Shown piece after piece: positions 2,383 to 64,000 of a stretch of DNA of 64,000 nucleotides; positions within the stretch are counted from its first letter, which is position 1; the number at the start of each line of letters is the position of its first letter. Position numbers and translations under genes: made by a program. The notes below the pieces were generated by a model. It worked only from the letters and a program-made list of their open reading frames with translations. It searched no databases and was not told the origin of the DNA. This DNA is from Escherichia phage TH12: sequence record MT446390.1. One strand, written 5' to 3'.

Positions 2383-2670
2383 ATGATTCATCCATTTGAC
2401 GTATCAGAATCCAAAATTGCTAATCTTCGTGGTCATCATAAGTGTAAATCAGTTTATTGTGCTAAATTGGTAAAACATCCTGGTGATGCACACTACGGCT
2501 GGTTAGAATGCGACGAAGTTGTTATTGAAATCCCACCGGTAGATGCTAACTATCTTGAAGAAGGAGACCGCATTTATTTTGGCGAACTACACATCAGAGG
2601 TATCTATGGTAAAGACGAACTTGGGACTGTTGAGACTGAAGAATCTTCCGACATTTATCCTGTCGAATGA
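2383..2670 (+). CDS. hypothetical protein (rIIB-proximal small ORF)
   Basis: ATG at 2383 with AGGGG RBS-like purine run; 95 codons; position of T4 rIIB.1-type ORF. Confidence 0.45.
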   Translation: MIHPFDVSESKIANLRGHHKCKSVYCAKLVKHPGDAHYGWLECDEVVIEIPPVDANYLEEGDRIYFGELHIRGIYGKDELGTVETEESSDIYPVE

Positions 2671-2686
2671 GTTTTTGACTAGTGAA

Positions 2687-3163
2687 ATGAAAGTGAAGAT
2701 TGCTGACACTGCTCGGTATTCACTAAGCCAAAATCCAGACCAAAACAAAGAAGATGTAGTTCGACGTTGTAAGGTTGCAGTCTTTGCAGAGTATGTAGTA
2801 GCAAATTGGCTAGACGGATATGTTAATAAAGGTATTGAAGATGTAGAAGACCCGTACACGTATGCATGGGACGTGTTAGCCCATCCCAAATATTGTGGAA
2901 TTCGTGTAGAAGTCAAGACACATCAGATGGATTCTAAATGGATTTCTGTTACCACAGGATACAGTGGTGATTATCCGGGTGGCAACGGAATCAACATAGG
3001 GCCCTTCCTTAATCATCGAGTCGCTGACTGTATTATTATATTGAATGTCAAAGAAACCTCACCTGACGTCTTCTCTTATTCTATAAAGTTCGTTGGAGAC
3101 CATGAAGACCTAAAGAAAATCGTCCGCAAGAGCAACTACAACGGGTGGTATCTTCATCTTTAA
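2687..3163 (+). CDS. hypothetical protein at the position occupied by denB (endonuclease IV) in T4
   Basis: ATG at 2687 (MKVKIADTARY...) in frame with ORF-track 2543..3163; identity to DenB not verified. Confidence 0.5.
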   Translation: MKVKIADTARYSLSQNPDQNKEDVVRRCKVAVFAEYVVANWLDGYVNKGIEDVEDPYTYAWDVLAHPKYCGIRVEVKTHQMDSKWISVTTGYSGDYPGGNGINIGPFLNHRVADCIIILNVKETSPDVFSYSIKFVGDHEDLKKIVRKSNYNGWYLHL

Positions 3164-3175
3164 TTTCATAAAAGT

Positions 3176-3212
3176 GTTTACAACTAAGTAGGACTATGAT
3201 ATAGTAGTCCTA
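3176..3212 (+). promoter_or_regulatory. early-type promoter (GTTTAC -35, TATGATATAGT -10 region) embedded in inverted repeat TAGGACTA/TAGTCCTA
   Basis: GTTTAC at 3176-3181, AT-rich -10-like element in loop of 8-bp inverted repeat 3189-3212; ~20 nt upstream of RBS/ATG 3232. Confidence 0.4.
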
Positions 3213-3745: not shown

Positions 3746-3946
3746 ATGGCTAAGCTTTTTAAAGATGTTGAAATTGGTGAAAAATTTGTTCTGAATAATG
3801 GACAGCAGCTTATTCGTGTAGCTTCTATAGCCGGACAAACTCATAACTGTATCGCCCCAACGTGTTGGACTCGATTCTTTATTGAAGATGACACTGAATG
3901 TTTAACTGTTGAAGAGCTTTTTGAACGTTCTGATATGACCGAATAA
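3746..3946 (+). CDS. hypothetical protein (66 aa)
   Basis: ORF with RBS GAGGAA upstream, preceded by promoter cassette. Confidence 0.6.
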   Translation: MAKLFKDVEIGEKFVLNNGQQLIRVASIAGQTHNCIAPTCWTRFFIEDDTECLTVEELFERSDMTE

Positions 3947-3948
3947 AA

Positions 3949-3984
3949 TTGTACAAACTCTTGAGAGCAGAGTATAATGCTCTC
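3949..3984 (+). promoter_or_regulatory. promoter with TATAAT inside inverted repeat GAGAGCA/TGCTCTC
   Basis: GTACAAAC -35-like, TATAAT at 3973-3978 in loop of 7-bp inverted repeat; upstream of ndd. Confidence 0.4.
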
Positions 3985-4022
3985 ATGGATTACAAAAACA
4001 TTAATCAATTGAGGAAATTAGC

Positions 4023-4469
4023 ATGTCCAAATATTTAACTCGTAAAGACCTTCTGGCAGTTGGCGGTGAAGTTGTTGCAGTAGTTCGTAATGGCGAATAC
4101 GGTTCTGAAGTTTCTAAAGAGTTTCGTTCTCGTGAAGGTTTTTACTTCTTTGTTAAAGGTTCATCTGACTGGCGACAAGTAGCAGCACGATTCTTTGTAG
4201 GACGTCAACGTTCTAAACAAGGGTTGGATGCAATTCTTTCTCACATTCGTCAAGGCCGTTCGCAACTAGCCCGTACCATGGGCACTAATAATATTGAATA
4301 TGACGTAATCTTTGTTTCAGCCAAGAACATGAAACCCCTGACTACTGGTTATGGTAAAGGTCAATTGGCTCTAGCATTCACTCGCAACCATACATCAGAA
4401 TATCAAACACTCACTGAAATGAACCGTCTTCTGGCCGATAATTTCAAATTTATTCTGCAGAGTTACTAA
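4023..4469 (+). CDS. ndd: nucleoid disruption protein Ndd
   Basis: 148 aa; motifs [58 protein letters not shown] match recalled T4 Ndd (151 aa). Confidence 0.85.
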
Positions 4470-19976: not shown

Positions 19977-20894
19977 ATGGATTTAGAAATGATGTTGGAT
20001 GAAGATTACAAAGAAGGTATTGCGCTTGCAGACTTTAGTAACATTGCATTGGCAGCTGCATTAAACAACTTTGAAGATGGTGATAAAATTACTGTTCCGA
20101 TGGTTCGTCATGTAGTCTTGAATTCAATTCGTAAAAACGTAGTGATGTTCCGTAAGCAAGGTTATACAAAATTTGTATTGTGCATGGATAACGCTACTTC
20201 TGGATATTGGCGTCGTGACTTTGCTTACTATTATAAGAAAAATCGTAAAACCGATCGTGAAGCTTCAAAGTGGGATTGGGAAGGATATTTTACTGCACTT
20301 CATCAAGTTGTTGATGAGATTAAGAAATATATGCCATACGTTGTAATGGATATTGACAAATACGAAGCGGATGACCATATCGGTGTATTAACTAAATATT
20401 TGTCATTAGCTGGTCATAAGGTGTGTATTGTTGCATCAGATGGTGACTTTACACAATTACACAAGTACCCTAACGTTAAACAGTGGTCGCCACCGCAGAA
20501 AAAATGGGTTAAAATTAAGAATGGTTCTGCTGAAATTGATTGCATGACTAAAATTCTTAAAGGCGACCGTAAAGATGGTGTTGCGTCTGTTCGAGTTCGT
20601 GGTGACTTCTGGTTTACTCGAGTTGAAGGTGAACGAACTCCAAGCATGAAAACATCAATTATTGAAGCAATTGCTAACGACCGTTCTCAAGCTGAAGTAT
20701 TATTAAGTGCTGAAGAATATAAACGGTACCAAGAAAATTTGGTTCTAATTGATTTTGATTATATCCCTGATAATATTGCTTCAACCATTATAGAGTATTA
20801 TAACTCGTATAAACAACAACCTAAAGGCAAGATTTATTCATACTTTGTAAAATCAGGTCTTTCTAAATTAACAAGTGTAATTAACGAATTCTGA
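19977..20894 (+). CDS. rnh: RNase H (5'-3' exonuclease / flap endonuclease)
   Basis: 305 aa, same as T4 RNase H; FEN-family acidic motifs; position upstream of dsbA/33/59. Confidence 0.85.
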   Translation: MDLEMMLDEDYKEGIALADFSNIALAAALNNFEDGDKITVPMVRHVVLNSIRKNVVMFRKQGYTKFVLCMDNATSGYWRRDFAYYYKKNRKTDREASKWDWEGYFTALHQVVDEIKKYMPYVVMDIDKYEADDHIGVLTKYLSLAGHKVCIVASDGDFTQLHKYPNVKQWSPPQKKWVKIKNGSAEIDCMTKILKGDRKDGVASVRVRGDFWFTRVEGERTPSMKTSIIEAIANDRSQAEVLLSAEEYKRYQENLVLIDFDYIPDNIASTIIEYYNSYKQQPKGKIYSYFVKSGLSKLTSVINEF

Positions 20895-20901
20895 GGTAAA
20901 C

Positions 20902-21171
20902 ATGGCTAAGAAAGAAGCAGTTGAATTTAATCAAGATGTGCATGGTGAAGAACTGGCTAAACTAGTCAAGGAAGCTTCCGATAACAAACTTAAAATTTCT
21001 GGTTATAATGAACTGATTAAAGACATTCGTACTCGTGCTAAAGAAGAGCTTGGTGTCGATGGAAAAATGTTTAATCGTTTGTTAGCTCTTTATCATAAAG
21101 ACGCTCGTGACCAATTTGAAGCTGAAAATGAAGAGGTAGTCGAGCTTTATGACACAGTTTTCACTAAGTGA
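20902..21171 (+). CDS. dsbA: double-stranded DNA binding protein DsbA
   Basis: 89 aa (T4 DsbA 89 aa) between rnh and gene 33. Confidence 0.7.
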   Translation: MAKKEAVEFNQDVHGEELAKLVKEASDNKLKISGYNELIKDIRTRAKEELGVDGKMFNRLLALYHKDARDQFEAENEEVVELYDTVFTK

Positions 21172-21487
21172 TATTAAACCGGTTGATGAGGCCGGTTTAT
21201 CTGAACAAGAATTAGCAGTAAAACACGATAAAGATGATATCGCTAAATTGCTTGACCGCCAAGAAAACGGATTCATTATTGAATCCATGGTTGAACAATT
21301 TGGTATGTCTTATTTAGAAGCAACAACTGCTTTCTTGGAAGAAAATTCTATTCCAGAAACACAATTTGCTAAATTTATTCCTACAGGAATTGTTGAAAAA
21401 ATTACAAGCGAAGCAATTGACGAAAACATGCTTCGCCCATCAGTTGCTCGTGGTGAAAAAACTAATACGTTAGATTTCTTATTATGA
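21149..21487 (+). CDS. 33: late transcription accessory protein gp33
   Basis: 112 aa (T4 gp33 112 aa); MTQFSL... start and C-terminal DFLL recalled from T4. Confidence 0.75.
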   Translation: MTQFSLSDIKPVDEAGLSEQELAVKHDKDDIAKLLDRQENGFIIESMVEQFGMSYLEATTAFLEENSIPETQFAKFIPTGIVEKITSEAIDENMLRPSVARGEKTNTLDFLL

Positions 21488-22167
21488 AATACGTTGTGTA
21501 TAAAACTACCAATAAAATAAATGGTAAAATTTATATAGGCGTACACAAAAAACATAAAGAGAAAGATTGGTATATTGGATCAGGCCGCGCTATATTAGCG
21601 GCCAAAGCTAAATATGGACTAAAAAATTTTTATACCGAAATTCTTTATGAATATGATAATGACAAGGACGCCTATAAAAAAGAAGCAGAATTGGTTAACG
21701 AAGATTTTGTTTTGCGAGATGATACTTATAACTTAGTTCCCGGTGGTAAAGGTGGTCCTGGTAAAAAACAAAGTGATGAAGCTAAAAGGTCTATTTCACT
21801 TTCTAAATTAGGTAAACCTAGATCTGAAGAGACTAAGGCTAAAGTATCTAAAACAAGACTAGAAAGAAAAATACCGTCACCTAATAAGGGTAAGAAACTA
21901 TCTGAAGCTCACAAATTGGCCTTGAGTAAAGTCCGAAAAGGGCGAAAAACGAATAAGCCGATGCCTGATTCAACCAAAGAAGCTCTTAGAATAGCAAATT
22001 CAAAGCCGCATTCTAAAGAAAGAACTATTAAAAAACAAAAACCTATAATTATTGATGGTATAAAATACGCCTCGTGTAAAGAAGTTTCAAATGTTTTTAA
22101 TATTTCTGCGTCTTTAGTTACATATAGACTTAAATCTTCAAAATGGTCCGGATGGAAATATGATTAA
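21484..22167 (+). CDS. free-standing GIY-YIG homing endonuclease (Seg-like)
   Basis: 227 aa; N-terminal VVYKTTNKINGKIYIGVH...YIGSG GIY-YIG module, central repeated basic motifs (NUMOD-like) and C-terminal I-TevI-like DNA-binding segment; overlaps gene 33 stop and gene 59 start. Confidence 0.8.
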   Translation: MKYVVYKTTNKINGKIYIGVHKKHKEKDWYIGSGRAILAAKAKYGLKNFYTEILYEYDNDKDAYKKEAELVNEDFVLRDDTYNLVPGGKGGPGKKQSDEAKRSISLSKLGKPRSEETKAKVSKTRLERKIPSPNKGKKLSEAHKLALSKVRKGRKTNKPMPDSTKEALRIANSKPHSKERTIKKQKPIIIDGIKYASCKEVSNVFNISASLVTYRLKSSKWSGWKYD

Positions 22168-22813
22168 AATACGCATGCCTCCTGATGGAGAACGTTATAT
22201 TAATGGAAAATCGGTATATAAACTATACTTGATGTGCAAAAACCATTTTGGTGGTCGGTATGACGTAATCAAATATAACTGGTGCATGCGTGTTTCGGAT
22301 AATGCGTATCAAAAACGCCGAGATAAATATTTCTTTGAGAAACTAGCAGAGAAATATAAGTTAAAGGAACTCACCTTGATATTCATAAGCAACTTAGTTG
22401 CTAACCAAGATGCATGGATTGGTGAGATATCAGACGCTGATGCATTAGTTTTCTATAGGGAATATATTGGACGTCTCAAACAAGCCAAGGAGACGTTTGC
22501 TGAAGATGTACGTAACATCTACTATTTCAGCAAGAAAGTGGAAGTTGGTGCGCTTCAAGAGATATTTGATTATAATAATAAAGTTCAGTCGAGCTATATA
22601 TTTAAATTGCTACAAAGCAATATAATTTCATTTGAAACCTTCTTGTTGTTGGATTCATTCTTGAATATTATAGATAAGCACGACGAACTCACCGACAATT
22701 TAGTCTGGCAAAATTATTCTACCAAATTAAAGGCATATCGAAAAATACTCCAAATTGATGGAAATGCTGCTAAGAAATTGTTCATAGAAACAATCAAATC
22801 ATGTAAGTATTAA
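22160..22813 (+). CDS. 59: helicase loader gp59
   Basis: 217 aa; MIKIRMPPDGERYINGKSVYKLYLM...YDVIKYNWCMRVSD matches recalled T4 gp59. Confidence 0.9.
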   Translation: MIKIRMPPDGERYINGKSVYKLYLMCKNHFGGRYDVIKYNWCMRVSDNAYQKRRDKYFFEKLAEKYKLKELTLIFISNLVANQDAWIGEISDADALVFYREYIGRLKQAKETFAEDVRNIYYFSKKVEVGALQEIFDYNNKVQSSYIFKLLQSNIISFETFLLLDSFLNIIDKHDELTDNLVWQNYSTKLKAYRKILQIDGNAAKKLFIETIKSCKY

Positions 22814-22842
22814 GCTTTATTTCTTGTGTGTTAAAATTACTT

Positions 22843-22850
22843 TATAAATA
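22843..22850 (+). promoter_or_regulatory. late promoter TATAAATA upstream of gene 32
   Basis: Exact TATAAATA 80 nt upstream of gene 32 ATG. Confidence 0.5.
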
Positions 22851-22854
22851 AATC

Positions 22855-22929
22855 ATACCAGCTACGAGGTATAAGTGTCGTAGCAACCAACTGTAAATAA
22901 ATTAAATAATCTAAATAAAGGTAAATATA
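22855..22929 (+). promoter_or_regulatory. gene 32 translational operator (hairpin/pseudoknot plus unstructured UAAA-repeat leader)
   Basis: Hairpin GCTACGA...TCGTAGC (22861-22884) followed by AAATAAATTAAATAATCTAAATAAAGGTAAATATA before the ATG, as in the T4 gp32 autoregulatory site. Confidence 0.6.
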
Positions 22930-23832
22930 ATGTTTAAACGTAAATCTACTGCTGACCTCGCTGCTCAAATGGCTAAACTGAACGGTAACAAAGGTTTCTC
23001 TTCAGAAGATAAAGGCGAATGGAAGCTGAAGCTAGATGCATCAGGTAATGGTCAAGCGGTAATTCGTTTCTTGCCAGCAAAAACTGATGATGCACTACCA
23101 TTTGCAATTCTTGTTAACCACGGTTTCAAGAAAAATGGTAAATGGTATATTGAAAATTGCTCTTCTACACATGGTGATTACGACTCTTGTCCTGTATGTC
23201 AGTACATTAGTAAAAATGACCTGTACAATACCAACAAAACTGAATATTCTCAACTGAAACGTAAAACTTCTTATTGGGCTAATATTCTGGTTGTTAAAGA
23301 CCCTCAAGCTCCAGATAACGAAGGTAAAGTATTTAAATATCGTTTCGGTAAAAAGATTTGGGACAAAATCAATGCAATGATTGCAGTTGATACCGAAATG
23401 GGTGAAACTCCGGTTGATGTTACTTGCCCGTTTGAAGGTGCCAACTTCGTTCTGAAAGCTAAGCAGGTTTCTGGTTTTAGCAACTATGACGAATCTAAAT
23501 TCTTGGGACAATCTGAAATTCCTCGTATTAATGACGAAGCATTCCAGAAAGAACTATATGACCAGATGGTAGACCTTACTACTTTGACGGCTAAAGACCA
23601 GTTCAAGTCCTTTGAAAAATTAAATGAATCTTTCGCTAAGGTTCTTGGTACTGCCGCTCTTGGTGGTGCAGCAGCCGCAGCAGCTTCTGTTGCAGATAAA
23701 GTTGCTTCTGACCTTGACGATTTTGATAAAGACATGGAAGCCTTTAGTTCTTCAAAAACTGAAGATGACTTCATGAGCTCTACCTCATCCTCTGATGATG
23801 GCGACCTCGATGACCTGTTAGCTGGTCTATAA
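22930..23832 (+). CDS. 32: single-stranded DNA binding protein gp32
   Basis: 300 aa; [23 protein letters not shown]..., Zn-binding region [12 protein letters not shown], acidic C-terminus; matches recalled T4 gp32. Confidence 0.95.
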
Positions 23833-23838
23833 TAAATC

Positions 23839-23860
23839 GGGAGACTTCGGTCTCCCTTTT
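23839..23860 (+). terminator. rho-independent terminator (GGGAGAC-TTCG-GTCTCCC + T4)
   Basis: 7-bp GC stem, TTCG loop, T tract after gene 32. Confidence 0.65.
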
Positions 23861-23945
23861 GAGTATCTGTAAATTACTGAAAAAGTTGTTTACTTCTTCC
23901 ATGGATGTGTTAGTATAGACCTATCAACAACATGAGGAAATCAAA

Positions 23946-24338
23946 ATGGAAATCGGAAAATCTTATATCATTAACCCTTTATTTAAAGACGACTTTGTTC
24001 AAGAAGCACCACATAATAACGCTAAGATGTTAAAATTGATTGAACTCCATGGGCCTAGTTTTGTTGTAAACGGAATGGAACCTGATTATGATAGCGATAC
24101 GCCAAACGTAGTAAGTGTAACTATGGAAGATGGTACTGTATGTTCTGCCGGTGGTGAAATTGGAACTTATTTTGAGATTTATCCTGACGAGTTCAAATAC
24201 TTTACTGAGGTAGATTTAGTAAAGCCTCAAACTACTAACGAAGGTATAACTTTAGGTGTAACAAAAATCCATTGTATCGTAGATGAAACCAACGTCGACG
24301 AAATCATCGAACTTTTGCAAAAAACTTTTAAAAAGTAG
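23946..24338 (+). CDS. hypothetical protein (130 aa), frd-proximal ORF
   Basis: ORF with RBS GAGGAAA and upstream promoter cassette. Confidence 0.6.
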   Translation: MEIGKSYIINPLFKDDFVQEAPHNNAKMLKLIELHGPSFVVNGMEPDYDSDTPNVVSVTMEDGTVCSAGGEIGTYFEIYPDEFKYFTEVDLVKPQTTNEGITLGVTKIHCIVDETNVDEIIELLQKTFKK

Positions 24339-24376
24339 TGTACAATCAGATAGGGTTATGTTATAGTAGCCCTATC
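24336..24376 (+). promoter_or_regulatory. promoter cassette with -10-like TTATGTTATAGTAG inside inverted repeat GATAGGG/CCCTATC
   Basis: GTGTACAA -35-like followed by a 7-bp inverted repeat flanking an AT-rich -10 region; upstream of ORF 24401. Confidence 0.4.
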
Positions 24377-24400
24377 AAATCAAAAGTGAAGGAGAATAAA

Positions 24401-24649
24401 ATGAGATTGCAACGTCAGAGCATCAAAGATTCTGAAGTTAGAGGTAAATGGTACTTCAACATCGTCGGTAAAGACGCTGAACTCCTTGAACAAGCTGAAG
24501 AAGCTTTACGTGAAATGGGTTGGAACGAAGAATGTGATGGATGTCCACTCTATGAAGATGGTGAAAGTGCAGGATTCTGGATTTGCCACTCTGACGTTGA
24601 AATGTTCAAAGCTGATTGGAAGGTTGTTAAGAAAAATCTGAGGAAATAA
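24401..24649 (+). CDS. hypothetical protein (82 aa)
   Basis: Internal ATG of ORF-track 24338..24649 preceded by RBS AAGGAGA. Confidence 0.55.
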   Translation: MRLQRQSIKDSEVRGKWYFNIVGKDAELLEQAEEALREMGWNEECDGCPLYEDGESAGFWICHSDVEMFKADWKVVKKNLRK

Positions 24650-24651
24650 AA

Positions 24652-25239
24652 ATGCTTAAATTAGTATTCGCATGCGCACCATCTAAAACAGTTGATGATA
24701 AACTGGAATATGCTTTTGGATTAGGTGATGGGCTGCCATGGAAGCATATCAAACAAGATATGAGTAACTTTGCTGCTCGCACTAAAAACACTGTAATGGT
24801 TATGGGTGCTAAGACTTTTGCATCATTACCTCGTCTACTCCCAGATCGTACTCATGTGGTTGTCACTGATATGGCCAGAAAACTGCCTAGGACTAAAAGC
24901 GACGAACTTGCACGGTTCTATATCACCCAAGCAGAATTTATTACCCTGGTGACTGGTAGTGAAATTAACTTGTTCGGCCCTTCAACAGACGTACCGTTTA
25001 AACTTTCTACTGAACATGTTGATGTATCTGTTATCGGCGGTCCTGCTCTATTAAAACAAGCACTGCCTTATGCCGATGAAATTGTGATGACTAAAATCAT
25101 TAAGAAATGTCGTGTTAATTCAGACGTTCAACTTGATAAAGATTTCATCCAAGATATTATGCTTCAACGTTCTATGGTAGAATCTCATTACTACAGAATC
25201 GATGAACTCACCGAAATTACTGAGAGCGTATATAAATGA
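24652..25239 (+). CDS. frd: dihydrofolate reductase
   Basis: 195 aa; FGLGDGLPW, VMGAKTF, VIGGPALL motifs; T4 Frd-like; stop overlaps td start. Confidence 0.85.
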   Translation: MLKLVFACAPSKTVDDKLEYAFGLGDGLPWKHIKQDMSNFAARTKNTVMVMGAKTFASLPRLLPDRTHVVVTDMARKLPRTKSDELARFYITQAEFITLVTGSEINLFGPSTDVPFKLSTEHVDVSVIGGPALLKQALPYADEIVMTKIIKKCRVNSDVQLDKDFIQDIMLQRSMVESHYYRIDELTEITESVYK

Positions 25240-25784
25240 AACAATACCAATACCTGATTAATGATATCCTAGAAAATGGCTACGAAACAGACGACCGTAC
25301 AGGCACAGGAACAATTGCCCTGTTCGGAACTAAATTACGTTGGGACCTGACTAAAGGATTCCCTGCAGTAACAACTAAGAAATTAGCATGGAAAGCTTGT
25401 ATTGCCGAGTTACTGTGGTTCATGTCCGGTTCTACTAATGTTAATGAATTACGTCTTCGTACTCATGGTAGTCTAATTGAAGGTAAAACTATTTGGGACG
25501 ATAATTACGAAAATCAGGCAAAAGACCTTGGTTATCATAGTGGTGAACTTGGTCCTATATATGGTAAACAATGGCGTGATTTCGGTGGTGTGGACCAATT
25601 AGTTGAAACAATCGACCGTATTAAAAAATTACCAACTGATCGTCGTCAAATTGTTTCTGCCTGGAACCCTGCCGAAATTGACCAAATGGCTCTTCCTCCT
25701 TGCCATATGTTCTATCAGTTCAATGTGCGTAATGGTCATCTTGATTTACAATGGTATCAACGCAGTGTAGATGTTTTCTTAGGT
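25236..25784 (+). CDS. td: thymidylate synthase, exon 1
   Basis: ThyA N-terminal motifs; ORF ends in ...SVDVFLG immediately followed by TAA that begins the intron. Confidence 0.9.
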
Positions 25785-26800
25785 TAATTTAGGCCTAGGT
25801 ATAAGGTGACTTATACTTGTAATCTATCTAAACGGGGGACCTCTCTAGTAGACAATCCCGTGCTAAATTGTAGGACTACCCTTTAATAAATACTTCTATA
25901 TAAAAAGAGGTGTTTATGAAAAGCGGAATTTATCAGATTAAAAACACTTTAAACGGTAAAGTGTATGTTGGAAGTTCTAAAGATTTTGAGAAAAGATGGA
26001 AGAGACATTTTAAAGACCTTGAAAACGGTGTTCACTCTTCTATAAAATTTCAAAGGTCTTTTAATAAACATGGTAATGTTTTTGAATGCTCTGTACTGGA
26101 AGAAATTCCATATGAGAAAGATTTGATTATTGAACGAGAAAATTTTTGGATTAAAGAGCTAAATTCTAAAATTAATGGATATAATATTGCTGATGCGTCT
26201 TTTGGCGATGTGCTTTCAAATCATCCATTAAAAGAAGAAATTGCTAAGAAACGAGCTGAAACTGTTAAAGCTAAGATGCTTAAGCTTGGTCCTGATGGTC
26301 GGAAAGCTCTTTATGGTAAACACGGAAGTAAAAATGGCCGATGGAATCCAGAAAACCACAAGTTTTGTAAATGCGGTGTTCGCATACCATCTTCGGCTGA
26401 TACTTGTGGAAAGTGCCGAAAACGTTCAGGTGAAAATAACCCGTTCTTTAATCACAAACATTCAGAAAAAACTAAAACTAAACTATCCGAAAAGATGAAA
26501 GGCAAAAAGCCAGCTAACATCAAAAAGATTTCATGCGATGGGATTATTTTTGAATGTGCAGCCGATGCGGCTAGACATTTTGAAATTTCATCAGGATTAG
26601 TTACTTACCGTGTAAAATCTGATAAGTGGAATTGGTTCTACATAAATGCCTAACGACTATCCCTTTAGGGAGTAGGGTCAAGTGACTCGAAACGATAGAC
26701 AACTTGCTTTAACAAGTTGGAGATATAGTCTGCTCTGCATGGTGACATGCAGCTGGATATAATTCCGGGATAAGATTAACGACCTTATCTGAACATAATG
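25785..26800 (+). mobile_element. td group I self-splicing intron (1016 nt) carrying I-TevI
   Basis: Begins TAATTTAGGCCTAGGTATAAGGTG and ends ...GGATAAGATTAACGACCTTATCTGAACATAATG, very close to recalled T4 td intron ends; splits the conserved ThyA peptide DVFLG|LPFNIASYA. Confidence 0.9.
25916..26653 (+). CDS. intron-encoded GIY-YIG homing endonuclease I-TevI
   Basis: 245 aa from ATG 25916; MKSGIYQIKNTLNGKVYVGS... and C-terminal ISCDGIIFECAADAARHFEISSGLVTYRVKSDKWNWFYINA match recalled I-TevI. Confidence 0.9.
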   Translation: MKSGIYQIKNTLNGKVYVGSSKDFEKRWKRHFKDLENGVHSSIKFQRSFNKHGNVFECSVLEEIPYEKDLIIERENFWIKELNSKINGYNIADASFGDVLSNHPLKEEIAKKRAETVKAKMLKLGPDGRKALYGKHGSKNGRWNPENHKFCKCGVRIPSSADTCGKCRKRSGENNPFFNHKHSEKTKTKLSEKMKGKKPANIKKISCDGIIFECAADAARHFEISSGLVTYRVKSDKWNWFYINA

Positions 26801-27112
26801 CTACCGTTCAACATTGCCTCGTACGCTGCCTTGACGCATATTGTAGCGAAGATGTGTAACCTTATCCCGGGTGATTTAGTGTTCTCAGGCGGCAACACGC
26901 ATATCTACAGCAATCATGTAGAACAATGCAAAGAAGTTCTTCGTCGTGAGCCTAAAGAACTGTGTGAACTTAAAATTGATTGGCCTGAAGGATTCTCTGA
27001 TTGGAGCACGACATTACAGCTTCATTGGGTAACAGAGCATATGAATCCGAGTGATTTCATTCTTAAAAATTACGAATCACATCCAGTTATCAAAGCTAAA
27101 ATGGCGGTATAA
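26801..27112 (+). CDS. td: thymidylate synthase, exon 2
   Basis: Begins LPFNIASYA (ThyA active-site region continuation); exons sum to 286 aa as in T4. Confidence 0.9.
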   Translation, partial: LPFNIASYAALTHIVAKMCNLIPGDLVFSGGNTHIYSNHVEQCKEVLRREPKELCELKIDWPEGFSDWSTTLQLHWVTEHMNPSDFILKNYESHPVIKAKMAV

Positions 27113-27114
27113 AA

Positions 27115-27368
27115 TGATTTTACGTTTTATTAATTCATATGGCACCACAATTTTTGAAATGAAAAATCCAAGTGAACTGGATATCCCTTCACCGAATAGT
27201 GAAATCACAGTTAAAGGTGAACGATTCATTTGTCATTCACACGAACGAATTTATGAATATCGTGAATTTTGTGGTGGTTACGGTATGGAAAAAGAACCGT
27301 TGGTTTATTTCAATATCACAGTCTTGACACCTAAAGAATACAAAGAAATTATTGCTAAGAATAATTAA
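27115..27368 (+). CDS. hypothetical protein (84 aa) between td and nrdA
   Basis: ATG at 27115 in frame with ORF-track 27051..27368; the earlier part overlaps td exon 2. Confidence 0.5.
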
Positions 27369-27455
27369 CGCTTCAGTTTAAAAGTGTATAATAAATTAAC
27401 GGGATAAATACTATCCCGTTTGGAGTAATGTCTATCAACCTATACTGAGGAATAT

Positions 27456-29711
27456 ATGCAAGTAACTAAGAGCAGTGGGGTATCCCAAAATTTTGATGCA
27501 CAGAAAATTATTCAAGTCTTAACTTGGCAGTGTGAAGGAACACAAATCGACCCATACGAATTGTATGAAGAAATTAAGACTCATCTGGTTGATGGGATGA
27601 GCACCAAAGATATCCAGAAGATTTGTATTAAAGTTGCAGCTAACTTGATTTCTGTCGAAGAACCTGACTATCAATATGTTGCCGCTAAAGGATTAATGTT
27701 TGCACTTCGTAAAGATGTGTATGGGCAGTTTGAACCGCCTGCTTTTATCGACCATATTTCTTATTGTGTTAATGAAGGCAAATACGACCCTGAGCTGTTG
27801 TCTCAATATTCAGCAGAAGAAATCATTTATCTCGATTCACAGATTAAACATGAACGAGACTTTGACCTGACTTATGCTGGTGCTATGCAGCTTAAAGAAA
27901 AATATCTAGTTAAAGATAAAACAACTGGGAAGATTTATGAAACTCCACAGTTTGCTATCATGGCTATTGGCATGGCCTTACATCAAGACGAAACTCATGA
28001 CCGTTTGAAACATATTATTCGTTTTTATGATGCCGTTTCTACTCATCAAGTTTCATTGCCAACCCCAATTATGGCAGGTGCTCGTACTCCAACTCGCCAG
28101 TTCTCTAGTTGTGTAGTTATTGAAGCCGGTGATTCGTTAAAATCTATTAACAAAACTTCAGCATCAATTATTGAATATATTTCTAAACGAGCTGGTATCG
28201 GTATCAACGTTGGTATGCTTCGTGCAGAAGGTTCTAAGATTGGTATGGGTGAAGTTCGACATACGGGTGTTATTCCATTCTGGAAACATTTCCAAACTGC
28301 AGTAAAATCTTGTTCTCAAGGTGGTATTCGTGGTGGTGCTGCTACAGCGTATTATCCGATGTGGCACTTAGAAGTAGAGAACCTGTTGGTTCTGAAAAAT
28401 AACAAAGGCGTGGATGAAAACCGTATTAGACATATGGACTACGGAATTCAGATTAATGACCTTATGATGGAACGCCTTGGTAAAAATGATTATATTACTT
28501 TATTTAGCCCTCACGAAATGTCAGGCGAACTATACTACTCGTTCTTTGAAGATCAAGATAAATTCCGTGAGCTTTATGAGAAAGCTGAAAAAGACCCAAC
28601 AATCAGAAAGAAAAGAATCAAAGCACTAGAACTCTTTGAATTGTTCATGACTGAACGCTCTGGTACTGCTCGAATTTATCCACAATTCGTTGATAACACG
28701 AACAACTACACTCCATTTATTCGTGAAAAAGCTCCAATTCGACAGAGTAACTTATGTTGTGAAATCGCTATTCCAACTAATGATGTGAATGGTCCTGATG
28801 CTGAAATTGGTTTATGCACATTATCTGCATTCGTGTTAGATAAATTTGATTGGCAAGACCAAGATAAAATTAATGAACTTGCTGAAGTGCAAGTACGTGC
28901 ACTTGATAACTTGTTAGACTATCAAGACTATCCGGTTCCAGAAGCTTTAAAAGCTAAAAAGCGTCGAAACCTAGGTATTGGTGTTACTAACTATGCAGCC
29001 TGGTTGGCTTCTAACTTTGCTTCATACGAAGATGCTAACGATTTGACTCATGAATTGTTTGAGAGATTACAATATGGCCTTATCAAAGCGTCAATCAAAC
29101 TCGCCAAAGAAAAAGGACCTTGTGAGTATTATTCAGACACTAAATGGTCTAGAGGCGAATTACCTATCGACTGGTACAATAAAAAGATTGACCAAATCGC
29201 AGCCCCGAACTACGTCTGTGACTGGGAAGAACTTCGAGCTGAACTCAAAGAACATGGAATTCGTAACAGCACACTTAGTGCTCTCATGCCATGCGAATCA
29301 AGCAGTCAAGTCTCAAATAGCACAAACGGTATTGAACCACCTCGTGGCCCAGTAAGTATTAAAGAATCTAAAGAAGGTAATTTCCGTCAAGTAGTTCCTA
29401 ATATTGAACACAACATGGGTCTTTATGACTATGCGTGGAAACTCGCTAAGAAAGGTAATAAGCCTTATCTGACACAAGTTGTTATCATGTTAAAATGGGT
29501 GTGCCAATCTGCTTCTGCTAATACATACTACGACCCTTCAGTCTTTGAGAAAGGCAAAGTGCCAATGTCTGTAATGCTTGATGACTTGCTTTACTTCTGG
29601 TACTTTGGTGGTAAGAACCTTTACTATCATAACACTCGAGATGGTTCTGGTACAGATGACTATGAGTTAGAAACGCCTAAAGCTGAAGATTGCTCCGCTT
29701 GTAAGCTTTAA
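27456..29711 (+). CDS. nrdA: aerobic ribonucleotide reductase large subunit
   Basis: 751 aa with class Ia RNR large subunit features (ATP cone, active-site Cys motifs, C-terminal CxxC). Confidence 0.9.
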   Translation: MQVTKSSGVSQNFDAQKIIQVLTWQCEGTQIDPYELYEEIKTHLVDGMSTKDIQKICIKVAANLISVEEPDYQYVAAKGLMFALRKDVYGQFEPPAFIDHISYCVNEGKYDPELLSQYSAEEIIYLDSQIKHERDFDLTYAGAMQLKEKYLVKDKTTGKIYETPQFAIMAIGMALHQDETHDRLKHIIRFYDAVSTHQVSLPTPIMAGARTPTRQFSSCVVIEAGDSLKSINKTSASIIEYISKRAGIGINVGMLRAEGSKIGMGEVRHTGVIPFWKHFQTAVKSCSQGGIRGGAATAYYPMWHLEVENLLVLKNNKGVDENRIRHMDYGIQINDLMMERLGKNDYITLFSPHEMSGELYYSFFEDQDKFRELYEKAEKDPTIRKKRIKALELFELFMTERSGTARIYPQFVDNTNNYTPFIREKAPIRQSNLCCEIAIPTNDVNGPDAEIGLCTLSAFVLDKFDWQDQDKINELAEVQVRALDNLLDYQDYPVPEALKAKKRRNLGIGVTNYAAWLASNFASYEDANDLTHELFERLQYGLIKASIKLAKEKGPCEYYSDTKWSRGELPIDWYNKKIDQIAAPNYVCDWEELRAELKEHGIRNSTLSALMPCESSSQVSNSTNGIEPPRGPVSIKESKEGNFRQVVPNIEHNMGLYDYAWKLAKKGNKPYLTQVVIMLKWVCQSASANTYYDPSVFEKGKVPMSVMLDDLLYFWYFGGKNLYYHNTRDGSGTDDYELETPKAEDCSACKL

Positions 29712-60922: not shown

Positions 60923-62206
60923 TTATTCATCTATAATAATTTTAGGCAATTTAACACCGAGTAAAACAGACAAGTCTGAACGTCCTGCCATTTTATCCAT
61001 GTCCCCGCCATCAATTATTCTCGCTTCTTTTTCGTCTTTTGCTACTGTGTAAGGATTTGCTGATAAAGCGTATCTAACTAATAAACCGATAGACGGTTGC
61101 AAGCTTTCCGGGTCAACTACAACTTTAAATGCACCAACATGTTCCGGGTCATCTAAGTCGAGACCTTCTGTATACGGAGCATAGAAAATTGATCCAACAA
61201 TTTCTTTTTCACCGATATTTTCTACTACGCCAACGATCACATAATCTAATGGACTGTTAGTATCGCAGTAAAGAGGTAATCCATTTGCCAAGAATCCATA
61301 AGCATTTTGTGAAAGATACTTATCATCTTCTGGTTTATGTTTTAACCAACCTGAAGCAGCAAGAATAGCAGCTGCACGAGCTGAAGCTACGCAAAACGTT
61401 GCAGTATAAGTTGACTCTTTTTGAATGTGTGATACCATTTCACACACCATTCGATATAACGAACGACCTGCTTCTGGAGCGGAAGCATAGCTCAAGTCAA
61501 TAAATCCAGTGTCAGTAATTCCAGTAACTTTATAACGTTTCGATACAGTAATTAAAGACTGAAGAATATCTTTATTAATTTCATCAGCCATTTCAGTAGC
61601 AAGCAAATCTTCTAAGAAGTTAGGGGCATCAAATCCATTCGCTTCTAAATCTTGCGCTAATTCAACCGTGAGGCCGGTTTTAAGTTTACGAGATTTGACT
61701 GAAGTTTGCCATTTATTAATCTGGAATCTTGCATCAGAAATTTCGCTACCGGAGCTTTCAAATTTGCTTGTCACCGCTGCATCTGAAAATAACCGTACCT
61801 TTAAATGAACGACCGCAATCTGAAGAGCTAATTCTAGATCACTTTCTTGAATATCTGCAAATGGTGTATCTTCTAGCACTTTATAGACGATATTATTATA
61901 TTTGAAAAAATCGCCTTTATTTAGTGTGACTTTTGATTCTTCTGTGAGCTCGGTAATTTTTTCTCGGTCTACATATCCAGCTTCACCTGCATAAGTAGCA
62001 CCAGTTTTAAACGTTAATTCGTTGTCTGGGTTAAGATATTTGATACCATAAAAAGCAGCAACAGGTTGATTAGTTCTTTGTGTTGCTACAATGTCAGAAT
62101 ATATTAATTTAGTCGTAGCGCGAGTCAAAGCAACGAGATTTGGGCGACCAATTGAGTTGCTAGTAGACGTTGTAGATTCACGCAATAATTTTTGGATTTT
62201 ACTCAT
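60923..62206 (-). CDS. 24: head vertex protein gp24
   Basis: 427 aa (T4 gp24 427 aa); paralogous to gp23 encoded next. Confidence 0.85.
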   Translation of the reverse strand: MSKIQKLLRESTTSTSNSIGRPNLVALTRATTKLIYSDIVATQRTNQPVAAFYGIKYLNPDNELTFKTGATYAGEAGYVDREKITELTEESKVTLNKGDFFKYNNIVYKVLEDTPFADIQESDLELALQIAVVHLKVRLFSDAAVTSKFESSGSEISDARFQINKWQTSVKSRKLKTGLTVELAQDLEANGFDAPNFLEDLLATEMADEINKDILQSLITVSKRYKVTGITDTGFIDLSYASAPEAGRSLYRMVCEMVSHIQKESTYTATFCVASARAAAILAASGWLKHKPEDDKYLSQNAYGFLANGLPLYCDTNSPLDYVIVGVVENIGEKEIVGSIFYAPYTEGLDLDDPEHVGAFKVVVDPESLQPSIGLLVRYALSANPYTVAKDEKEARIIDGGDMDKMAGRSDLSVLLGVKLPKIIIDE

Positions 62207-62232
62207 TGCATTTTTCCTTATGTGATATAGAT

Positions 62233-62240
62233 TATTTATA
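62233..62240 (-). promoter_or_regulatory. late promoter TATAAATA for gene 24
   Basis: Minus-strand TATAAATA ~27 nt upstream of the gene 24 ATG. Confidence 0.5.
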
Positions 62241-62306
62241 AAGATTGTTTACAACGTATTTGGTATGTGATACTATAGACTTATCAACTACAGAGGAGTA
62301 AACAAA

Positions 62307-62576
62307 ATGACTAAAGCACGTTTCTTACGAGATACTTTAAAAGTTCTGGAAGCTGAAGCAGTTAAGTTAGTAGAAAAATATGGTGCAAAAGTTAATGGTA
62401 ATGCCTTCAACAAAGTATGGATGAAAGTTGATTCTGAAGCTCGAGCTAAAGGTTATTGGGCTACTGATAAACTTGCATCATTCAAAAACAAAGACGGTTC
62501 TCCAGCATATGTCCAAGAAGGTATGCCTAATTGGCAAAATATTTTGAAAACTTACATCGAAATTGCACAGAAATAA
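62307..62576 (+). CDS. hypothetical protein (89 aa) between genes 24 and 23
   Basis: ORF with RBS GAGGAG and early-type promoter upstream; sits where T4 has segD. Confidence 0.55.
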   Translation: MTKARFLRDTLKVLEAEAVKLVEKYGAKVNGNAFNKVWMKVDSEARAKGYWATDKLASFKNKDGSPAYVQEGMPNWQNILKTYIEIAQK

Positions 62577-62577
62577 A

Positions 62578-62606
62578 ACCAAAAATGGGAGACCGAAGTC
62601 TCCCAA
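62578..62606 (-). terminator. hairpin terminator after gene 23 (also closes plus-strand ORF 62307)
   Basis: GGGAGAC-CGAA-GTCTCCC with T tract on the minus strand. Confidence 0.5.
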
Positions 62607-62628
62607 AATAAGATTTAATCAATTAAGA

Positions 62629-64000
62629 TTAGATGCCTTTTACATATACACGGCGGAAGTAAGCGTTCTTACCAAGGCTGTTCAGGATAGACGGCATACC
62701 GGACTGGATGCGAGCACCTGGAGCCTGCAGGGAACTTTCAGCAAACGGGTTAACACCGATACCGTAACGAGTTTTAAAGCCCATTACCGGCTGGAAGTTC
62801 TTAGGATCGGAACCACGCAGTGGGGTAAGTGCAACGTAAGGAGCATAGTAGATACCTGCATCCATTTCGTTAGCGCCTTTGTAACCAACGGTGAAGTAAT
62901 CCTGTTTAGCATACTGGTCGATGTATACGCGGTATTTACCACCAAGTACACCGGCAAATACAGACTTAGTAGTGTCGGTATTAAAACCAGAAGCCAGACC
63001 CTGTGCAGCGTAAGAAATACCAGTATCAACTGAAGCCAGTACGTTAACTACGTTACGGGAAGCGATAATGAAGTTACCTTCACCACGACCGGTTTGACGA
63101 GCAATTTCAACTGCTTCTTTATCAATCTGGAACAACAGAGATTTAAAGCTTTCACCAGCCCAACGAGCACCACGGATATCAATCGGGTCCTGGAAGTCAA
63201 ATACACCAGCTTTAGAACCAGGAGTCAGGGTCATACCAGATTTACCGACCTGTGCTGAGTAGTTAATCCAATCAACAACTTCACGGTTGATTTCTAGCAT
63301 AATTTCTGTAGCCAGAATACCGCTCAGTTCAGCATCAGCATCCATACCGTGTACTGCACGGAGGTCTTGTGCTAATTCGATAGAGTAAGCAGCTTTCAGC
63401 TGGCGAGATTTAGCTTCGATAACTTGTTTATCGATACGGAAGCCCATTTCATTCCATGGGTTATCGGTAGAACCGTTGAAACCTTCCTGGAGTTCAGCGA
63501 TAGAAGTAGCCATACCTTCAGCGATTTCTACCAGGGCACCAGCTTCCATTTGTTTCTTAACTTCTGCATCTAATTTAGCTGCATCAGTTGCACCAGAATC
63601 AAGTGTTACGATAGCAGAAGCTTGCAGATATACAGTACCAGTTTCTTGGAAGAAGTGAGTATAGATATCACCTACAACGGTGGTAGTGTCAGCAGCCAGA
63701 GCTGGGAATTTCTTAGCAGCACCCTGACCAGAGAACATCGCGTCTGGGGCATACATCGGATGGAAAGCTTCTTTAGCGCCAGCAGCGATAGGGTCTTTAC
63801 CATATACTGCACGGAGAGCAAATACCTGACCGGTCGGGCTGTTCATAGGCTGAACACCACAAATATCAAAAGCGATCAGATTAGGAATAGCACGACGAAC
63901 CATACCCATAACTGCCGGCCCAATTTGGGTTACTGCACCAGAGGTTTGACCTGCTGCAATATTCTGAGCATTATAACCGTGGTCACCACCAATTTCAGCT
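62629..64000 (-). CDS. 23: major capsid protein gp23, C-terminal ~457 codons; 5' end beyond window
   Basis: Translation matches recalled T4 gp23 (e.g. ...GKNAYFRRVYVKGI C-terminus); reading frame stays open to the window edge. Confidence 0.85.
   Translation of the reverse strand, partial: AEIGGDHGYNAQNIAAGQTSGAVTQIGPAVMGMVRRAIPNLIAFDICGVQPMNSPTGQVFALRAVYGKDPIAAGAKEAFHPMYAPDAMFSGQGAAKKFPALAADTTTVVGDIYTHFFQETGTVYLQASAIVTLDSGATDAAKLDAEVKKQMEAGALVEIAEGMATSIAELQEGFNGSTDNPWNEMGFRIDKQVIEAKSRQLKAAYSIELAQDLRAVHGMDADAELSGILATEIMLEINREVVDWINYSAQVGKSGMTLTPGSKAGVFDFQDPIDIRGARWAGESFKSLLFQIDKEAVEIARQTGRGEGNFIIASRNVVNVLASVDTGISYAAQGLASGFNTDTTKSVFAGVLGGKYRVYIDQYAKQDYFTVGYKGANEMDAGIYYAPYVALTPLRGSDPKNFQPVMGFKTRYGIGVNPFAESSLQAPGARIQSGMPSILNSLGKNAYFRRVYVKGI

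Follow-up and report, generated by a model that had tools for sequence, protein, structure and literature searches.

In the genome of Escherichia phage TH12 (sequence record MT446390.1), a stretch of 64,000 nucleotides, referred to here as the window, carries an open reading frame (ORF) between gene 33, which encodes the late-transcription co-activator gp33, and gene 59, which encodes the helicase loader gp59 (Table 1). Judged from its sequence and its surroundings, the ORF is a free-standing GIY-YIG homing endonuclease gene (HEG) of the Seg type and not an intron-borne one. The initial annotation, which was made from the letters of the DNA, had described an ORF of 227 amino acids that overlaps the stop codon of gene 33 (ATGA) and the ATG of gene 59, and both overlaps are seen in the ORF list and in the sequence. 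At the left junction (...TTCTTATT-ATGA-AATACG...), the ATG of the HEG and the TGA stop codon of gene 33 (21485-21487) share the letters ATGA. At the right junction (...GGATGGAAAT-ATGATTAA-AATACG..., with GGAAAT before ATGATTAA), the ATG of gene 59 is at 22160 and the TAA stop codon of the HEG is at 22165-22167. Further upstream, dsbA precedes gene 33, as identified by Pfam.

In the annotated T4 genome, genes 33 and 59 share 4 nt, and segG is placed between genes 59 and 32 (a location also given in PMC535899), which agrees with the T4 arrangement described in the initial annotation. In the window, the spacer between genes 59 and 32 is 116 bp long (22814-22929), and it has no + strand ORF of at least 40 amino acids in the ORF list. 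When T4 SegA-G, I-TevI and I-TevII were compared with the whole window by tblastn, matches were obtained only at the HEG (21484-22167) and at an I-TevI-like ORF (25910-26653), and no remnant resembling segD, segE or segG was found. The earlier statements that the 59-32 spacer has no endonuclease, that no segE-like gene lies between uvsW and the inh-position ORF and that no segD-like gene lies between genes 24 and 23 are thus upheld.

No Shine-Dalgarno sequence was found before the ATG of the HEG when the sequence was inspected. A search for the T4 late promoter (TATAAATA) and for sigma-70-like sites found none that was convincing in the HEG or just upstream of it, and the T4 middle (MotA-dependent) promoters were not searched; the closest match to the late promoter lies before gene 32, at 22843. 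From the arrangement of the junction, the HEG is most likely translated by reinitiation at the stop codon of gene 33; in T4, 5 of the 12 free-standing HEGs overlap the upstream ORF (PMC2988022). At the other end, the conserved last codons of the HEG (TGG AAA TAT ...) place a GGA-rich stretch before the ATG of gene 59 and recreate an ATGA-type start.

Table 1. Features at the 33/59 locus of the window
Feature	Position	Strand	Support and remarks
Seg-type GIY-YIG homing endonuclease ORF	21484..22167	+	227 amino acids, ATG start; ORF list, PHROG 314, TIGR01453, SegD match, AlphaFold
Gene 33, late-transcription co-activator gp33, upstream host gene	21149..21487	+	Pfam Trans_coact 3.5e-26
Gene 59, helicase loader gp59, downstream host gene and predicted target gene	22160..22813	+	Pfam T4_Gp59_N 6.8e-50, T4_Gp59_C 3.4e-44
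Left TATGA, gene 33 stop overlapping the HEG start	21483..21487	+	Sequence, alignment; proposed translational coupling, no Shine-Dalgarno sequence upstream
Right TATGA, gene 59 start within the last HEG codons	22159..22163	+	Sequence, alignment; direct repeat of the left junction
N-terminal GIY-YIG catalytic domain, amino acids 1-90	21484..21753	+	beta 2-10, beta 16-23, helix 35-44, beta 49-57, helix 60-70; homologues, Foldseek
Basic helical linker with four NUMOD3-like repeats and no zinc finger, amino acids 93-176	21760..22011	+	Model, NUMOD3 18 bits
C-terminal I-TevI-type helix-turn-helix DNA-binding domain, amino acids 183-226	22030..22161	+	Pfam PF20987, PDB 1i3j
676-bp insertion relative to HEG-free Mosigviruses	21488..22163	+	Alignment to the empty site of LF82-1; boundaries ambiguous by the 5-bp repeat
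Predicted target and immunity patch in gene 59, +26 to +91	22186..22251 (core 22219-22251, codons 20-31)	+	HEG-linked substitutions; the window has the derived AAC (N28)...GGT (G31)

Family, fold and catalytic residues of the HEG protein

The HEG protein matched PHROG 314 'homing endonuclease' (1e-55) and passed the NCBIfam model TIGR01453 (74.7 bits against a cut-off of 56.05), with amino acids 4-226 lying on profile positions 3-212 of 215. Among the T4 proteins, SegD was the best match (39.5% identity over 200 amino acids, E 4e-37), followed by SegC (E 4e-26), SegB (2e-24), SegE (2e-21) and SegA (1e-15). I-TevI aligned over its full length with 27% identity, SegF matched only weakly, and SegG gave no pairwise match either in this comparison or in the tblastn search of the window. 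In the catalytic domain, identity to SegA, SegB, SegC and SegE is 39-48% (48% to SegB and 43% to SegC). The GIY-YIG identity of Seg type that had been proposed from the letters is borne out by the SegD match and by the full-length match to TIGR01453.

At the level of domains, Pfam PF20987 (I-TevI_DNA-bd) was found at amino acids 183-226 (5.8e-12, 45.7 bits against a cut-off of 27). Of the domains that had been read by eye, this I-TevI-type DNA-binding tail is above its threshold, and the GIY-YIG and NUMOD matches are present yet fall below the Pfam thresholds (NUMOD3, PF07460, reached 18 bits under a cut-off of 20.4). Many homologues carry PF07460, and precomputed matches to the GIY-YIG families PF01541 and PF19835 exist in several close homologues. 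An AlphaFold model built with 52 homologues has a mean predicted local distance difference test score (pLDDT) of 90.3, with 87-97 over amino acids 1-90, and shows an N-terminal order of beta-beta-alpha-beta-alpha, four basic linker helices (98-108, 115-127, 141-152 and 162-173) with a recurring S-x-E-x-K-x-x-x-S pattern, and a C-terminal beta-hairpin plus helix-turn-helix. The only confident Foldseek matches in the PDB were the I-TevI DNA-binding domain 1i3j (probability 1.00), the I-TevI catalytic domain 1mk0/1ln0 and I-HmuI 1u3e. For 1mk0/1ln0, the target TM-score was 0.64-0.66 and the probability 0.99-1.00, with weak E-values of 5e-3 to 5e-2; the weakness of the E-values overall (3e-3 to 5e-2) is explained by the extended, multi-domain shape of the modelled chain. 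A sequence search of the PDB retrieved only 1i3j (4.4e-4), so that the catalytic domain was matched only via the predicted structure. The I-TevI zinc-finger cluster (Cys151/153/164/167) aligned to a gap, and C198 is the sole Cys of the HEG protein. Of the 'I-TevI-like tail' described earlier, the C-terminal helix-turn-helix therefore stands, and the zinc finger does not, its place being taken by NUMOD3-like helical repeats.

The residues Y6, K15, Y17, G19, H21, Y30, G32, E67, Y82 and N83 are invariant in all 52 homologues. In a MAFFT alignment to I-TevI, Y6 falls on Y6, Y17 on Y17, G19 on G19 and N83 on N90, and E67 falls on E75 with a one-residue offset; the 'GIY' and 'YIG' strands (VVY6...Y17-I-G19) each have a Tyr, with the 10-11 residue spacing of the GIY-YIG superfamily. 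In the Seg motif block, which consists of an H after YIG, D-x-Y-[MIL]-G-S-G and K-Y-G, H21, Y30 and G32 are invariant and D28, S33, G34, K43, Y44 and G45 are at least 90% conserved. The canonical Arg (R27 of I-TevI) has no alignable counterpart in the HEG protein, and the R27 helix is aligned to a gap. The same gap is found in the alignment of T4 SegA-E, and a Seg-specific loop, H21...D28-x-Y30-x-G32-S-G, replaces the R27 helix in these proteins as well. Three basic residues, R35, K15 and K43, were considered as candidate replacements for R27; R35 is at the N-terminus of the modelled helix 35-44, and its position is K/R in only 31 of the 52 homologues. Of the catalytic Tyr, Arg, Glu and Asn that the initial annotation had singled out for alignment, the two Tyr, the Glu and the Asn are thus present and invariant, and for the Arg no counterpart can be aligned. 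Since none can be aligned in SegA-E either, and since SegA, SegB, SegC and SegE are listed as endonucleases shown to be mobile (PMC2988022; SegB in detail in PMC2330249), we interpret the missing linear Arg as a subfamily trait and not as decay.

We compared the HEG with the known systems of T4. SegD shares with it the motif block Y..YIG.H...D.Y.GSG...KYG...E...YN..GG, the NUMOD3-like linker repeats and the C-terminal helix-turn-helix; however, SegD lies at 23/24, antisense to its neighbors and with no identified promoter (PMC2988022), whereas the HEG of the window lies at 33/59, is co-oriented and is proposed to be translationally coupled. SegD gives no mechanistic precedent for the target, because a 2010 review lists its mobility as 'ND' and its target as 'unknown' (PMC2988022). 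SegA, SegB, SegC and SegE resemble the HEG in their catalytic domains, including the lack of an alignable I-TevI R27, and its life style can be likened to theirs: they are free-standing and present or absent in relatives, and they cut near, but not at, the insertion site with co-conversion of the flanks (PMC2988022, PMC2330249), a behavior that we infer for the HEG. Their C-terminal parts, in contrast, are unalignable beyond the NUMOD3 repeats, and they have other sites or targets (tRNA cluster, 5.1/5.3, uvsW, uvsX). I-TevI has the same layout of a GIY-YIG domain, a long linker and a C-terminal helix-turn-helix, and provides the top structural matches; unlike I-TevI, the HEG is free-standing, has no zinc finger and has the Seg loop in place of the R27/H31 helix. 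SegG, which is also free-standing, occupies the adjacent slot of the same gene cluster and cuts a neighboring essential gene of replication, some way from its own position and with co-conversion (PMC535899, PMC2988022), but it lies on the other side of gene 59, its target is gene 32 and not gene 59, and it has no detectable pairwise similarity to the HEG. The two types can coexist, as both are found in Dhakavirus IME540.

Distribution of the insertion and HEG-linked alleles of gene 59

The locus of the window is 96-99% identical to that of Mosigvirus (RB69-like) phages, with Escherichia phage 55 as the top match (99.1%). Among 167 matching phage records, the HEG is present in 28 (whole query covered) and the remaining records are without the ORF; among the 149 Mosigvirus records, 28 have the HEG and about 120 do not. 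The population analysis used GenBank phage records, from which 22 Mosigvirus and 4 Dhakavirus sequences were taken, and IMG/VR had only one Mosigvirus-like contig. When compared with relatives that have no HEG, RB69 and T4 among them, the ORF is an insertion. In the alignment to LF82-1, the insertion is precise: it entered where genes 33 and 59 overlap by ATGA, has TATGA at each end and cost no host sequence. The empty arrangement, in which the two genes overlap, is annotated in RB69 and in 7 further sampled Mosigviruses, and genes 33 and 59 abut in 21 of 22 T4-like loci from IMG/VR. Hence the T-even relatives do not uniformly carry a gene at this position, and the earlier proposal of an insertion at a site other than that of segG is supported, since 33 and 59 abut in RB69 and T4 and the ORF is not a SegG homologue. 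The HEG is present or absent among Mosigviruses that are otherwise about 97% identical, and 7 further sampled phages with the HEG, from different continents, belong to the species mar005p1, JS09 and shsm521 of the International Committee on Taxonomy of Viruses (ICTV). The G+C content of the insert (0.31-0.35) is the same as that of the flanks, so composition gives no signal of foreign DNA.

All 9 aligned copies of the HEG are intact, each with 684 nt. Of 48 variable codons in these copies, 32 have only synonymous changes and 16 change the amino acid, and the invariant catalytic positions are untouched. The alignment thus shows an intact HEG on which purifying selection acts. The gene already has the label 'homing endonuclease' in about 25 GenBank records, and no paper describing a HEG at 33/59 was found in literature searches, which reach few subscription-journal papers. 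Apparently, the HEG is a new, uncharacterized member of the Seg type, of a kind that is already known and would not surprise specialists. Two oddities were noted in the public records of this locus. In RB69 (L035, AY303349, 1110-1637), gene 59 is annotated from an internal start as 175 amino acids, whereas all other records use the start that overlaps ATGA; and PaulHMueller (L040, MZ501098) is filed under Tequatrovirus, with a locus 96% identical to Mosigvirus.

Relatives of the HEG at 46-57% identity occupy the 33|59 site in Dhakavirus, in a Serratia phage and in three metagenomic T4-like contigs. Six distinct homologues were inspected, including those of IME540, P0004, P0008, P0012 and P0010 (Serratia phage vB_SspM_LC53, identical in sequence to IMG/VR locus L019), and all have the arrangement 33|HEG|59 with the same overlaps; around the P0004, P0008, P0012 and P0010 homologues, the gene order is rnh-dsbA-33-HEG-59-32, with the ATGA overlap to gene 33. 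The homologue in Dhakavirus IME540, which is 57% identical, lies between genes 33 and 59 with the same overlaps, and in that genus 3 genomes have the HEG and about 45 do not. Identity between genera is 52-66% for the HEG, 53-66% for gp33 and 72-81% for gp59. From these comparisons, the association of the HEG lineage with the 33|59 locus looks old.

In most homologues from other genera, the start of the HEG repeats the first 8-11 nt of the local gene 59 (ATGATTAAR, or ATGATTCGTC in L053); this is the case at L049, L051, L052 and L053 (at 3001) and at L003 (IME540, at 2498). The insertion thus has the start of gene 59 as a direct repeat on its two sides, a repeat which has shrunk to TATGA in the window, where the HEG copy is without the Ile codon (MKY... 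compared with MIKY... in other genera). The repeated start may date from the illegitimate insertion that first placed the element there, or it may reflect selection that keeps the two starts coupled. The homologues in L049, L051 and L053 are also shorter (197-204 amino acids compared with 227), with about 30 amino acids of the linker missing, roughly one NUMOD3-like repeat (amino acids ~150-183); should the linker set the spacing, as that of I-TevI does, the distance between cut and binding site may differ between genera. In IME540 (L003), the 33|59 homologue (2498-3184) is accompanied by a SegG homologue between genes 59 and 32 (3845-4462; 58% to T4 SegG, E 9e-86), so that gene 59 is flanked by two unrelated Seg genes, whose targets are presumably gene 59 and gene 32, respectively.

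We then aligned 2 kb of flanking sequence from 9 Mosigviruses with the HEG (HEG+) and 10 without it (HEG-), which gave 180 variable sites. The 9 sites most associated with the HEG are all at gene 59 +26 to +91, and none is in gene 33. All HEG+ genomes have T at +59 (synonymous), AAC (Asn28) and GGT (Gly31), whereas most HEG- genomes have C at +59, CAA (Gln28) and AAT (Asn31); since T4 has the same codons 28 and 31 as the latter, CAA/AAT is taken as the ancestral allele. A 66-nt probe assigned 53 of the 149 Mosigvirus records to the derived allele and the other 96 to the ancestral allele; every one of the 28 HEG+ records is derived and none of the 96 ancestral records has the HEG (Fisher p = 6e-16, a test that ignores shared ancestry). 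Two HEG-linked haplotypes share exactly +59, +81, +83, +90 and +91, and one of them has four extra synonymous changes, from +26 to +86. The downstream haplotypes (+179 to +251) are common to HEG+ and HEG- genomes, which indicates that the HEG and about 90 bp of gene 59 behave as one unit, found on more than one background. Dhakavirus provides an independent replicate: its HEG+ and HEG- genomes have 12 fixed differences in 1.2 kb of flanks, of which 11 are at gene 59 +14 to +77, including M25Q, and nine of these fall within 22 bp (+56 to +77). The non-synonymous changes of the patch are thus Q28N and N31G in Mosigvirus and M25Q in Dhakavirus. The patch is in a stretch that is among the most conserved parts of gp59 across T4-like phages. 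Conserved stretches are typical of HEG targets.

Taken together, the comparison of relatives suggests that the enzyme cuts the start of gene 59 in HEG-free phages, and the HEG-linked substitutions probably mark a target and immunity patch. The patch spans about 35 bp, a length compatible with the footprint of an extended GIY-YIG enzyme that acts as a monomer; the recognition sites of I-TevI and SegB are 38 bp (PMC2988022) and 27 bp (PMC2330249) long. The derived patch also occurs in about 11 HEG-free lineages (LF82 series, G2285, F2, AV111, PNJ-9, sutha, JQD51, Mizar, KAW3E185, F27 and JM10). In the five of these that were inspected, its extent differs: KAW3E185 has the second HEG-linked haplotype to +26, G2285, AV111 and F27 have the derived sites from +59 to +91, and LF82 has only those from +81 to +91. 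Such 'empty but immune' genomes can be read either as products of repair tracts that stopped short of the HEG, which would be expected for a cut 50-90 bp from the insertion, or as the result of precise loss between the TATGA repeats, and both readings fit a homing cycle.

Proposed homing cycle and alternative explanations

We consider it likely that the ORF is a functional free-standing homing endonuclease of the SegA-E type, from a lineage faithful to 33|59, with the activity and the gene 59 target inferred from the comparisons above. In the cycle that we propose, the HEG would be read from the dsbA-33-59 transcript, without its own promoter or ribosome-binding site, and would be translated at a low level by termination-reinitiation at the ATGA of gene 33, its 3' end recreating the start of gene 59. 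When a HEG-free relative infects the same cell, the enzyme, acting as a monomer, would bind via its C-terminal domain and cut the ancestral gene 59 allele (...AAA CAA CAT TTT AAT GG..., K-Q-H-F-N-G) at a site some 50-90 bp downstream from the point of insertion. Recombination from the HEG+ genome would repair the break and copy in the HEG and the first ~90 bp of its gene 59, and the donor would be protected by the patch substitutions (synonymous T at +59, Q28N and N31G). Some repair tracts would carry the immune patch alone, as the cut lies off the insertion point, or a precise deletion between the TATGA repeats would leave the same 'empty but immune' state. Free-standing HEGs of T4 are known to cut a conserved neighboring gene at a distance and to co-convert the flanks (PMC2988022), and SegB, the closest characterized catalytic domain, is an experimentally shown homing enzyme (PMC2330249).

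Several results weigh against this proposal. The canonical Arg has no alignable counterpart and R35, one candidate for its role, is poorly kept; the protein is below the gathering thresholds of the Pfam families PF01541 (GIY-YIG; 14.2 bits against 22.6) and PF19835 (SegE_GIY-YIG; 22.4 against 25); and since no promoter of its own was found, expression of the HEG may be very low. The divergence of the HEG tracks that of gp33, so there is no sign of recent movement across genera. For the target, the association statistics ignore shared ancestry, the Dhakavirus replicate consists of 2 HEG+ and 2 HEG- genomes only, and the existence of ~11 HEG-free lineages with the 'immune' allele means that the allele could predate the insertion.

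The last of these points would also fit an active enzyme whose target is not the patch, which we regard as unlikely. The substitutions would then be hitch-hiking clade markers or co-converted donor sequence, and the true site would be the ATGA junction of 33/59 or gene 33 itself. An insertion that disrupts the junction would confer immunity without any substitution, as in intron HEGs, and because the 3' end of gene 33 is invariant in the sample, a target there would leave no trace; the derived patch in HEG-free lineages and association tests that disregard phylogeny are in keeping with mere markers. However, with the junction as the target, the empty genomes with the derived patch (KAW3E185, G2285, AV111, F27 and LF82) would be open to cleavage, and their renewed invasion would be expected. 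Two of the linked changes alter amino acids in a part of gp59 that is very conserved, and neutral markers would not be expected to do so. The five changes listed above are common to both HEG-linked haplotypes, which otherwise differ, and Dhakavirus has its own dense cluster, 9 changes in 22 bp, in the same place. In addition, SegF, SegG, SegE and MobE cut within the neighboring gene and not at the insertion point (PMC2988022).

It is about equally improbable, in our view, that the ORF is a Seg-type HEG by descent that is now an inert or domesticated passenger, retained either for its 3' end, which supplies the start context of the essential gene 59, or for an acquired role in DNA binding or regulation, comparable to autorepression by I-TevI. 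The lack of an alignable Arg, of a promoter of its own and of a Shine-Dalgarno sequence would suit such a passenger, as would its presence in a minority of genomes per genus; its divergence between genera equals that of the flanking gp33, as vertical descent predicts, and embedded expression signals favor the retention of HEGs in T4 (PMC2988022). Yet the sampled copies are all intact with a 2:1 excess of synonymous-only codons, and Tyr, Tyr, Glu and Asn are kept in 52 homologues, while the Arg-less pattern is common to SegA-E, several of which cleave DNA (PMC2988022, PMC2330249). Gene 59 can do without the insert, since viable HEG-free genomes with a plain ATGA junction are common, and it is difficult to account for the HEG-linked substitutions clustered in gene 59 of two genera unless a nuclease exerts pressure. 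An intron-encoded endonuclease, to which we give almost no credence, is suggested by the name of the best NCBIfam model (grpIintron_endo) and by the label 'group I intron endonuclease' on two GenBank records, H24 and H28, but it is rejected on anatomy, since the ORF is situated between two distinct genes and overlaps each of them, the empty site has no continuous exon, only two genes that overlap by 4 nt, and the 676-bp insert is almost wholly ORF. No Rfam intron was found at 20000-28000, a weak negative because the td intron described below was missed as well.

A wider reading of the homing proposal is put forward tentatively, as being rather less likely to hold than to fail: that the 33|59 Seg lineage is old and site-faithful, that in two genera immunity to it came at the price of non-synonymous change in the conserved N-terminal DNA-binding domain of gp59, that immune alleles circulate without the HEG, and that translation of the HEG is tied to that of gp33. 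If true, Mosigvirus would be a natural three-state system in which one could directly measure the homing cycle and the way in which a HEG drives the evolution of an essential protein, the susceptible, invaded and empty-but-immune alleles among ~150 phages being its natural data set. The comparative data predict a target of ~35 bp in gene 59 and two or three resistance substitutions, which is directly testable. Since RB69 (Mosigvirus) and the Dhakaviruses JS98 and JS10 are reported to be without any HEGs (PMC2993671), these three and other RB69-like phages would be clean natural recipients for the enzyme. The results may also be relevant to marker exclusion between therapeutic T-even-like phages in cocktails. 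As one more Seg-type selfish gene in a T4-like phage, the HEG is of modest weight; what is added to the initial annotation is the exact anatomy of the insertion, the site-faithful lineage in several genera, the predicted gene 59 patch and the empty-but-immune alleles.

Other features of the window

Two ORFs on the - strand, 60923-62206 and 62629-63909, which the initial annotation took to be genes 24 and 23, are separated by a gap of 422 bp (62207-62628). T4 has segD in the 23/24 interval, and none of the T4 Seg proteins is similar to the gap.

The td (thymidylate synthase) gene is split by an intron-like insert (25788-26797) between ORFs 25236-25787 and 26798-27112. No match to a group I intron was found at this insert at the Rfam gathering threshold. 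The insert contains the I-TevI homologue mentioned above (25910-26653, + strand), which is 88% identical to T4 I-TevI over 245 amino acids. RB69 has been reported to be without HEGs, and spread across phage clusters has been doubted (PMC2993671). DNA identity to T4 is 83-95% in the td insert, 70-81% in the td exons and ~60% in frd, which suggests that the td intron moved between T-even and RB69-like phages.

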